The notes under the pieces were generated by a model. The model saw only the letters and a program-made list of their open reading frames with translations, was not told the origin of the DNA and made no database searches. Below, one piece after another: positions 29,767 through 31,126 of a DNA stretch of 64,000 nt (position 1 is its first letter; each line of letters starts with the position of its first letter). A program made the translations under genes and the position numbers. The DNA is from Minisyncoccota bacterium (GTDB taxonomy: Bacteria; Patescibacteriota; Minisyncoccia; Phycocordibacterales; UBA2100): the NCBI GenBank assembly GCA_036517335.1, contig DATDWX010000027.1, positions 24,192-88,191 of the forward strand, written 5' to 3'.

Positions 29767-30303
29767 ATGGTGTTAGGTACCGACCAACAAACTCAACGCA
29801 TGAAAATCTTGCCTCACATCGATAGTATTCCCACCACGGTAGCAGGCACCACCCACACATACGACACCAATGGCAATCTCACAGGAGCTTCTCCGTGGAC
29901 CTACACGTGGGATTACCGCAACAGGCTCTCGGCCTCCGGCAACGGCGCCACTTCCACCTATGCCTATGACGCAAGTGACAACCGTGTCCTCCAAGCCTCC
30001 GCCAGTGCGACCACGACGTATCCGAATAGGTACTACTCAATCACTAGTGCAACAAGTACCGACTACATCTTCACCGGTGACACCCTCCTCGCCACCATCG
30101 AGGCAGGAAGCGCTGCCACCACCACCCGCTACATCCACCCCGACCACCTGGGCTCCACCAACGCCACCACCAATGCAAGTAGCTCCATCATCCAACTCCT
30201 CGACTACTACCCCTATGGCAAAAGGAGCTTCACCGCTGGCACCGACGTCAGCCAACGAGAGTTCATAGGAGAGCACTTCGACGAAACTTCGAGCCTCAGC
30301 TAA
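29767..30303 (+). pseudogene. orphan rhs core fragment (displaced C-terminal core, truncated before the DPxG motif)
   Basis: The 178-aa ORF is near-identical to residues encoded at about 27985-28470 (TTVAGTTHTYDTNGNLTGASPWTYTWDYRNRL...YYPYGKRSF...EHFDETSSLS). It stops where the parent continues SYLNARYY. Confidence 0.75.
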
Positions 30304-30437
30304 TTGAATGCGAGATATTACCAAAGCACCACTAGTCATCGACTTTGTAGTGGCACGGGGACCATAATTGGGGTCCGGGCCAGGCGCGGATTAAGGCGCG
30401 CCACCATTCTCGGGGCGCACCGGGTGCTTCATGGTGC

Positions 30438-30686
30438 ATGCAGCCGCCGGTCTGCTATAATCTGGGCATGGTAAGGATACTGGAAATCGCGATCTCCAAA
30501 GCAGCCGAGCTTTCCGAGGCTGCGCAAGAGCAGCTCGGGCGGGAAATGCTCGAACGCATCGACTCCCTTGCCGAGCTTCGGACTGCGCTCGAAATAGGCA
30601 TACGTCAGCTCGACGCTGGGGAAGGGAAGCAGCGCGACATCGAAGAGGTTATCAGGCGAGCGCGCACGGCGCATGCCAAGGGCTAA
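30438..30686 (+). CDS. parD: ParD/RHH-family type II antitoxin
   Basis: 82 aa. The C-terminal ...LRTALEIGIRQLDAGEGKQRDIEEVIRRARTAHAKG resembles ParD antitoxins. It overlaps the downstream toxin gene by 14 bp. The alternative start Met at 30468 lies just after a TATAAT at 30456-30461. Confidence 0.6.
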   Translation: MQPPVCYNLGMVRILEIAISKAAELSEAAQEQLGREMLERIDSLAELRTALEIGIRQLDAGEGKQRDIEEVIRRARTAHAKG

Positions 30687-30993
30687 GTGCCGGCGGGTCG
30701 TCTGGTCGCCCGAAGCCGACAGCGATCTCCTGGACATCTGGACATATTACGCGCGAGTCGCATCACTTGAGATCGCGGACAATCTGCTGCGAGAAATAGA
30801 TCGGGTCGGGGAAGGGATCGGCGAAAAACCTCTCCTATCCCGCCAGCGAGACGAACTGTTGCCGGGTCTGCGATCAGTAATCGTTCGTCCGCATGTGATT
30901 TTCTTCCGGATCAAAAACAGCACTGTCGAAGTCGTTCGTGTGCTGCATGGCCGGCGGGACTTTCCGGCGATCTTCGGGAGAGACGGTGAATAG
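30673..30993 (+). CDS. parE: ParE/RelE-family type II toxin
   Basis: VVWSPEADSDLLDIWTYYA...RDELLPGLRSVIVRPHVIFFRIKNSTVEVVRVLHGRRD matches the ParE_toxin pattern. Confidence 0.7.
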   Translation: MPRAKCRRVVWSPEADSDLLDIWTYYARVASLEIADNLLREIDRVGEGIGEKPLLSRQRDELLPGLRSVIVRPHVIFFRIKNSTVEVVRVLHGRRDFPAIFGRDGE

Positions 30994-30997
30994 GGAA

Positions 30998-31086
30998 GTG
31001 GTGGCGCCGGGTGTCAACTTGACCGGAGCCTCCCCCTGGACGTACACATGGGACTGGCGCAACAGACTCACTGCTTCCAGCAACGG
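30998..31086 (+). pseudogene. third short rhs-core remnant
   Basis: Encodes LTGASPWTYTWDWRNRLTASSNGATTYP*, homologous to the rhs region at about 28050-28130. Confidence 0.6.
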
Positions 31087-31126
31087 TGCCACCACCTACC
31101 CATAATTCGGTGATATCATTACGATC

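Follow-up and report, generated by a model that had tools for sequence, protein, structure and literature searches.

A ParE-type toxin-antitoxin operon between decayed rhs core fragments in a groundwater Candidatus Paceibacterota bacterium

The stretch of DNA analyzed here, referred to below as the window, comprises 64,000 nucleotides (nt) of contig DATDWX010000027.1 (assembly GCA_036517335.1, positions 24,192 to 88,191 of the forward strand) from a groundwater bacterium of Candidatus Paceibacterota, a lineage of the candidate phyla radiation (CPR). It carries a full-length rhs gene followed by two fragments, orphan 1 and remnant 2 (orphan 2), that repeat the 3' end of its core, and between these fragments a toxin-antitoxin (TA) operon with a ParE-type toxin. 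Comparison of both fragments with the main core at the nucleotide level gave matches far beyond chance, and the operon is most closely related to cassettes of high-GC bacteria. We consider it likely that the locus is a decayed C-terminal displacement array into which a foreign ParE-type operon has been spliced, and thus an ordinary recombination scar. The features that carry this argument are listed below in coordinates of the window, with the evidence for each in parentheses.

20944..29733, + strand: full-length rhs open reading frame (ORF), 2929 amino acids (aa) (ORF list, Pfam)
27993..28500, + strand: stretch of the main core to which orphan 1 corresponds (DNA alignment, repeat search, BLAST, codon comparison)
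28369..28626, + strand: Rhs-associated core domain of the main gene, with DPTGRC at its end (TIGR03696, E 1.8e-15, residues 199-284 of the translation of 27775-28701)
28627..29278, + strand: C-terminal toxin domain of the main rhs gene (HMMER whole-library search, aa 1-226 of the translation of 28600-29733; GC content)
29300..29733, + strand: immunity-like coding region with two transmembrane (TM) segments, read as the tail of rhs, its ATG being off by one base (HMMER search)
29767..30303, + strand: orphan 1 ORF, 178 aa (ORF list, core homology, codon comparison, TIGR03696 test)
30322..30387, no strand: filler of 66 nt (no match in the window, in the compared loci or in the rhs core)
30388..31011, + strand: TA segment read as imported, with promoter region, antitoxin gene, parE and an 18-nt 3' tail (nucleotide identity to foreign cassettes)
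30468..30686, + strand: antitoxin candidate, 72 aa (homologue alignment, AlphaFold2 model, ratio of nonsynonymous to synonymous substitution rates, dN/dS)
30673..30993, + strand: parE toxin gene, 106 aa (PF05016, ParE matches in PDB, dN/dS)
31008..31107, + strand: remnant 2, a piece of rhs core of about 100 nt, NLTGASPWTYTWDWRNRLTASSNGAT-TYP* (BLAST, repeat search, comparison)

The product of the full-length rhs gene starts with a signal-like sequence followed by SpvB and FG-GAP (FG-GAP_3) domains identified with Pfam, and has the multiple RHS/YD repeats of an Rhs toxin (PF05593, E 4.2e-23, in five stretches). The frame continues through the core end with its DPxG motif into a variable C-terminal toxin domain and then into an immunity-like domain. 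The homologues of the 226-aa toxin tip found with HMMER are the C-termini of Rhs proteins of 2000-3200 aa, and GC content, 56% in the core, drops to 48% over 28627-29733, a region that covers the toxin tip and the immunity-like part, as expected for an exchanged tip. Two copies of the Gly_rich_2 domain (PF21722) are also present in the gene, at 21347-22025 and 26987-27662; these stretches of about 680 nt, 5.6 kb apart and diverged to 72-73% nucleotide identity, represent an internal duplication within the shell-coding region.

No separate immunity gene follows the main rhs gene directly, the immunity-like sequence being fused to it in frame. Residues ~236-374 of the translation of 28600-29733 fall into a family whose members are standalone two-TM proteins, 135-147 aa in length (HMMER). 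The ATG at 29300, which is preceded by a Shine-Dalgarno sequence, encodes only MRIKV* (5 codons); if one A is restored in the run of four at 29309-29312, a 145-aa ORF (MRIKSVTIYRANKFYGLP...) appears that matches the standalone immunity-like proteins, and rhs then ends at 2794 aa. The four-A sequence is common to all 12 contigs of this strain described below, and one other representative with a fused toxin and immunity part was found (P0296, 450 aa). An apparent loss of 1 nt thus looks to have fused the immunity ORF to rhs, which would be a sign of decay in the main gene itself.

Orphan 1, deposited as HEY4516864.1 in a metagenome-assembled genome of a Candidatus Paceibacterota bacterium (NCBI), is a copy of the 3' core end of the adjacent full-length gene: positions 29829-30321 match 27993-28500 of the main core with a BLAST E-value of 2e-134. 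An initial annotation, made from the letters of the window, had called this 178-aa core copy near-identical to the main core, which is true of the protein only; over 163 codons the two are 92% identical in amino acids and 84% in nucleotides, with dN 0.08, dS 0.60 and dN/dS 0.13. Given such dS and dN/dS values, the copies have diverged for long as functional coding sequence, before they came to lie next to each other, and a fresh duplication in place is not what they record. Mismatches between them cluster and leave three tracts, of 60, 46 and 41 nt, without any difference (P about 0.0002 by shuffling; P 0.03 when third codon positions are considered). This pattern is compatible with occasional conversion between core copies, and uneven constraint could contribute to it.

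The 3' end of orphan 1 lies further from the DPxG motif than the same annotation had it. The stop codon TAA at 30301-30303 stands in place of the TAC (Tyr) codon of '...LSYLNARYY'; past this stop six codons (LNARYY) still align, and similarity ends at about 30321. The break is located 50 codons upstream of DPTGRC in the main gene, not just before DPxG, and so orphan 1 is devoid of most of the Rhs-associated core domain and not of the tip alone. The TIGR03696 profile, which detects this domain in the main gene at E 1.8e-15, has no match in orphan 1 even at E<=1. The fragment has neither DPxG nor a toxin tip into which a core could continue, and no cognate immunity gene follows it, the next genes being the antitoxin and parE of the TA operon.

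The second core remnant predicted downstream of the operon is real, with its position shifted. It matches 28031-28131 of the main gene with 86% identity over 86 nt (E 2.5e-19), and this homology occupies approximately 31008-31107, not 30998-31086 as was first proposed; bases 30998-31011 belong to the TA segment. Remnant 2 is nearer to the main gene (80% nucleotide identity) than to orphan 1 (72%). It is bounded on the left by the TA segment, and its right end lies 19 nt before an unrelated gene for a secreted protein that begins at 31127. An extension of the remnant into that gene (31127-31930), suggested by a tblastn match of 39% over 99 aa, was rejected, as the match reflects Thr/Ser-rich composition and crosses a stop codon. 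With only ~100 nt of core homology, remnant 2 has no tip and no immunity gene.

The toxin gene between the fragments was firmly assigned to the ParE family. Its product matches PF05016 over all positions of the profile (1-89 of 89; E 3.3e-18, 66.5 bits against a cut-off of 23), and is thus a full-length member. Among PDB chains the best matches are 5czf, 5cw7, 8c24 and 3kxe, with E-values from 2e-13 to 6e-9, and matches to ParE chains extend to 3e-5; 5czf and 5cw7 are complexes of ParE2 with PaaA2. All 69 homologues of the protein (69/69) are standalone proteins of about 80-130 aa. Characterized members of the ParE family are gyrase poisons.

The gene for the antitoxin candidate precedes parE and overlaps it by 14 nt. 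Its start, as judged from the alignment of homologues, is the ATG at 30468 and not the one at 30438. Members of this family always stand directly upstream of members of this ParE clade, and the same pairing is found in the foreign loci L021-29, L032 and L033; an upstream overlapping partner and a conserved pair are the general organization of a type II TA operon. The partner itself matched no antitoxin family of Pfam, NCBIfam or PHROGs at E<=0.1 (Pfam was tried to E<=10), and profile searches against PDB sequences gave nothing significant. In a collection of 5.8 billion proteins 89 homologues were found, none of which (0/89) has a Pfam domain; those with names are called 'hypothetical protein', apart from one labeled 'phage shock protein A'. 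An AlphaFold2 model (mean pLDDT confidence 91.7) consists of helices 2-13, 17-49 and 58-71 with no N-terminal strand, and a Foldseek search of PDB with this model gave no match at E<=0.001. The model thus suggests that the ribbon-helix-helix fold of ParD is lacking, except that a strand formed in the dimer only would not be visible in a monomer. We regard the partner as an antitoxin by its position and constant pairing with ParE; of the ParD/ParE pair initially placed between the remnants, the ParE part is confirmed by PF05016 and PDB, and the label ParD, which is not supported by any family, fold or PDB match, should be dropped. A family of ParE partners without annotation is a small lead in its own right.

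Both genes are intact, and their dN/dS values (antitoxin/parE) are low in comparison with L032 (0.13/0.21), L021 (0.33/0.30) and L024 (0.15/0.10), which indicates that the pair is under purifying selection. A TATAAT box (30455-30460) and a palindrome, TGCATGCA, upstream of the TA genes are conserved. A scan for promoters and terminators reported no terminators and missed the TATAAT box at 30455-30460 because its -35 element is weak. The operon therefore resembles the ParDE and PaaA2-ParE2 operons in its full-length ParE_toxin domain, small overlapping upstream antitoxin, conserved promoter and palindrome, and differs from ParDE in its antitoxin, which has no match to ParD (PF03693-type, ribbon-helix-helix) or to other entries of Pfam, NCBIfam or PDB.

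The relatives of the operon are found outside rhs loci, in DNA of higher GC content. The TA segment has a GC content of 59%, compared to 54% in the window, and it aligns with the following loci, for each of which nucleotide identity and the matching positions of the window are given. Of these, L029 was the useful locus among the matches listed when metagenome contigs were scanned with ParE.

L032: 92.3% over 30388-31010; GC 63%
L026-28: 87.7% over 30426-31011
L033: 87.5% over 30468-31012
L021-23: 86.5% over 30467-31015; GC 65%; neighboring genes encode 1616-aa PAS/GAF kinases and a guanylate cyclase
L029: 82.8% over 30464-30993
L024/25: 72.7% over 30426-30976; GC 67%

In L032, L026-28, L021-23 and L033 the right border falls at 31010-31015, that is, 18-22 nt past the parE stop codon, and homology to the rhs core starts exactly at this border of the TA segment. 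In L029 (30993) and L024/25 (30976) homology ends at, or just inside, the parE stop codon. The left border differs among the relatives, from 30388 to 30468, and the window retains 80 nt of upstream non-coding sequence in common with L032. On these borders and affinities, the segment 30388-31011 reads as foreign to the rhs array, not as a native part of it.

In two of these loci, L024 and L026, the cassette is carried by members of a single family of elements that resemble integrative and conjugative elements (ICE-like elements) and encode Replic_Relax, a DUF87 ATPase, DUF3768, ParB_N and an integrase or resolvase; the DUF87 (TrwB-like) ATPases of the two elements are 85% identical in amino acids. 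The cassette stands alone in other contexts in L021-23, L029 and L033. Apart from the TA cassette, no gene of the ICE-like element occurs in the 64-kb window, which likewise contains no integrase, transposase, relaxase or tRNA gene, and a search of a plasmid collection with the cassette gave no match. The ICE-like elements occupy positions 1-6600 of L024 and 1100-10800 of L026, the latter being an island of 60-68% GC between flanks of ~53-55% GC. A DUF3768 gene also adjoins a lone rhs orphan in L017/L018. The cassette thus resembles TA cassettes of mobile elements, its relatives riding on the ICE-like family or standing alone and the unit having sharp borders; it differs from them in that its site is an array of rhs orphans in a CPR bacterium with a small genome, where none of the remaining element genes is present.

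On the left, the TA segment is separated from the end of orphan 1 by the filler, which holds two short hairpins, GGACC..GGTCC and GGCGCG..CGCGCC, and whose alignment with the remnant 2 region scored below those of shuffled sequences. Two repeats considered near the junctions were discarded: a 9-nt inverted repeat, GCGCCACCA/TGGTGGCGC, close to both ends, and an 11-nt repeat, CCATAATTGGG/CCATAATTCGG, are each at chance level for a region of 900 nt.

The arrangement is fixed in the population sampled. Scaffold_734 from a Rifle-aquifer metagenome (ANAN16-1_SAMN03842431) is 100% identical to the window over the compared stretch, and 11 further contigs from ENA, JGI and Logan assemblies match the window alongside it. 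These 12 contigs, which come from separate samples and assemblers (ENA, JGI, NCBI-linked, Logan), cross both junctions at 99.9-100% identity. All contigs encoding the ParE (n=12), together with L020, whose ParE is 98% identical, were compared across 29700-31200 as possible strain variants. No structural variant with tips on the cores or without the TA pair was present in the collections searched, the stretch being uniform at 99.9-100%; a seeming difference in L007 is a run of N. Strain variants with toxin/immunity pairs fused to these core copies, for which the initial annotation had suggested a search, were not found among these contigs (12/12 contigs 99.9-100% identical), and by the yardstick of that annotation the remnants behave as pseudogenes, untipped in every strain contig.

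Variable tips do occur on the corresponding cores in relatives. The orphan 1 protein has >300 homologues at E<=1e-5; among the best 120, many are ORFs of 200-310 aa (PF25023) with 45-57% identity, and the named ones are called RHS proteins. Several of these 120 run through 'ARYY..GRF.S.DP...DPxG' into short tips, and others are visibly frameshifted. The closest of them, P0002, is the last, tip-less member of an rhs array in locus L015. This array opens with the end of a main rhs gene and its immunity gene, followed by an Ntox44 fragment and a gene for a 98-aa membrane protein; then come an orphan core with Ntox44 and a DUF5412 immunity gene, a 450-aa orphan core with a tip and a gene for a 140-aa membrane protein, and finally P0002, after which NeuB and epimerase genes are located. 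L015 has three orphan modules in which the core end carries DPxG and a C-terminal toxin domain (Ntox44 and others), and behind each of them stands a membrane immunity gene. A strain variant, L016, is devoid of the two middle modules, and the deletion ends in core copies that are 80% identical, suggesting that the difference arose by recombination between core copies. Positions 1-119 of L015 are 100% identical to 7764-7882 of the same locus, which suggests a recent exchange of tips. No TA pair was found within the related rhs arrays examined, and a search of genome contigs with the core end gave only matches of 25-35% identity in unrelated phyla.

Arrays formed by C-terminal displacement are known at rhs loci (Jackson et al. 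2009, PMC2935791), and so are orphan rhs-CT/rhsI modules (Poole et al. 2011, PMC3150448; Koskiniemi et al. 2014, PMC3967940). The locus analyzed here is similar in that a full-length rhs gene is followed by fragments repeating its 3' core end, in that the copies are diverged yet conserved as coding sequence, and in the low GC content of the current tip. The classical picture of orphan cores joined to toxin tips and immunity genes, on which the initial annotation drew, is visible in L015/L016, where such modules vary by core recombination. By analogy, L015/L016 are probably what the array of the window looked like before decay. The window differs in that its orphans have no tips or immunity genes; moreover, orphan 1 is missing the final 50 codons of the core, DPxG among them, and carries a nonsense codon, and orphan 2 is reduced to ~100 nt. 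In contrast to the enterobacterial Rhs proteins linked to type VI secretion, the rhs gene of the window belongs to a CPR bacterium and has a Sec signal peptide and a SpvB/FG-GAP N-terminus.

A likely sequence of events is as follows. Incoming modules consisting of a 3' core, a toxin tip and an immunity gene would recombine with the rhs core and push older tips downstream, leaving orphan 1 and orphan 2, each of which would open with a copy of the core end. Illegitimate recombination would then bring in the ~0.62-kb segment, with the ARYY codons of orphan 1 on its left and the NLTG codons of orphan 2 on its right. This segment, with the promoter, antitoxin gene and parE only, would derive from a cassette that rides on ICE-like elements in high-GC bacteria elsewhere. 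Either the joining itself, or later deletions around a larger inserted element, would have cost orphan 1 its final 50 core codons, its tip and its immunity gene, and orphan 2 its 5' start; orphan 1 would also have gained its nonsense codon, and orphan 2 would have lost everything beyond ~100 nt. The antitoxin, as a putative labile partner, presumably binds and neutralizes ParE, and cells that lose the cassette would be poisoned, which would explain why the cassette persists amid the surrounding deletion. The rhs fragments thus appear to be pseudogenes with no toxin to contribute, and the TA operon would be the only live part, with a predicted activity. Its persistence is as expected of a selfish addiction cassette. 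The suggestion that the orphans have lost their toxin tips and that a TA operon occupies the slot is borne out by the lack of DPxG, tip and immunity gene on either remnant, and of the two explanations originally offered for it, the recombination scar fits the evidence.

Several observations weigh against this explanation of the locus as a displacement array with a spliced-in operon. No ancestral or intermediate state, such as a variant without the TA pair or with tips, was found in the collections searched, so that the order of events and the amount of DNA deleted are those that we infer. Microhomology, target-site duplications and terminal repeats at the junctions are not above chance. The 66-nt filler is not accounted for, the stretch 30322-30430 matching only same-strain copies in a comparison with the window and the loci. 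The named homologues of the cassette are only two and distant (Xanthobacteraceae and Rhodoplanes), and thus define the donor taxon weakly; given the flanks of ~54% GC in L026, the immediate source could have been a mobile element resident in CPR. Finally, the antitoxin family is uncharacterized, and the TA activity is predicted from sequence.

The alternative that survives best, although we hold it to be distinctly less probable, is that a larger integrative element with relaxase, ATPase, ParB and integrase genes was inserted in the array and then deleted down, the cassette being what survives of it. When such an element decays, its TA module can be expected to persist longest, and homologous cassettes are cargo of one ICE-like family in both L024 and L026; the 80 nt of upstream non-coding sequence common to the window and L032, together with the 66-nt filler, could also be traces of a longer insertion. 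Against this, the 64-kb window holds no other element gene, attachment site or trace of an integrase, and the cassettes of L021-23, L029 and L033 stand alone in other contexts. This alternative is a variant within the explanation proposed above, from which it differs in how the DNA arrived, as the operon alone or in a larger element.

The initial annotation had also proposed an addiction module stabilizing the array. In this scenario the TA pair would be retained since killing of the post-segregational type blocks deletions of the rhs toxin/immunity locus or of the glycan genes around it. Any chromosomal TA pair disfavors deletions that include it, the cassette is intact, under purifying selection and present in every contig of the population, and the one immunity-like sequence that the locus has is 700-1400 nt away. 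However, the flanking elements are dead fragments that leave nothing to preserve, and the adjacent array has no tips left; the main immunity ORF looks frameshifted despite the TA pair, deletions on both sides have reached the borders of the cassette, no relative has a TA pair in an rhs array, and the same cassette occurs in unrelated contexts. Nothing was found in support of stabilization as such, and we consider it improbable.

The use of ParE as a replacement Rhs tip, with antitoxin and ParE forming a toxin/immunity cassette that could be fused to a core, can be considered excluded. RelE-fold domains are found, rarely, as C-terminal toxins of RHS proteins (Tox-RelE, PMC3482391), and parE shares the reading frame of orphan 1; however, the antitoxin precedes the toxin, whereas in tip/immunity modules the order is reversed. 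Translation of parE begins at a start codon of its own, which overlaps the antitoxin stop, and the operon has a separate promoter region. Neither core homology nor DPxG is linked to parE, stop codons and 370 nt lie between it and the end of orphan 1, and every ParE homologue is standalone. This anatomy effectively refutes the idea. Also excluded, and the least credible of all, is an assembly chimera, with the TA segment of a high-GC organism wrongly assembled into the CPR contig, as might be suspected from its GC content above that of the window and from its nearest relatives in contigs of 60-65% GC, from samples with neighboring ENA accession numbers, since 12 contigs from different samples and assemblies span both junctions identically and the nearest foreign copy is only 92% identical.

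The rhs locus is embedded in a long run of glycan-biosynthesis genes that encode glycosyltransferases, epimerases, a Wzy-type ligase and an ABC exporter, with SecA further along. The gene after remnant 2 (31127-31930) encodes a 267-aa protein with a signal peptide and a Thr/Ser/Glu-rich low-complexity N-terminal half; it contains 24-nt tandem-like repeats at 31763-31846 and has no family match. A 94-aa ORF at 35628-35912 (...WYTYVLRSLKDGNWYTGFTNDLRKRFKQHN...), wedged between an ABC exporter gene and a capsule-synthesis gene, looks like a small nuclease of the GIY-YIG type, a candidate label from motif reading.

A more speculative extension concerns the origin of the cassette, which may have been transferred recently into CPR from a co-occurring high-GC bacterium, possibly the host on which this bacterium would live as an episymbiont, with the antitoxin representing an undescribed three-helix family of ParE partners. 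The ENA accession number of the L032 sample is close to those of samples with this strain. We regard this proposal as doubtful, somewhat more so than the stabilizing role discussed above; if it is true, the cassette would be a sequence marker pairing a CPR lineage with its host.

The locus is a new instance of known phenomena and not a new system, and the understanding of Rhs or TA systems is unchanged by it. It provides a clean, well-bounded case in which rhs orphan arrays of CPR bacteria share the displacement-and-decay dynamics known from enterobacteria, and suggests that dispensable rhs 'graveyards' can take up foreign selfish cassettes. A segment common to CPR and high-GC bacteria at 92% nucleotide identity could, in addition, help to link this CPR lineage to its donors or hosts.

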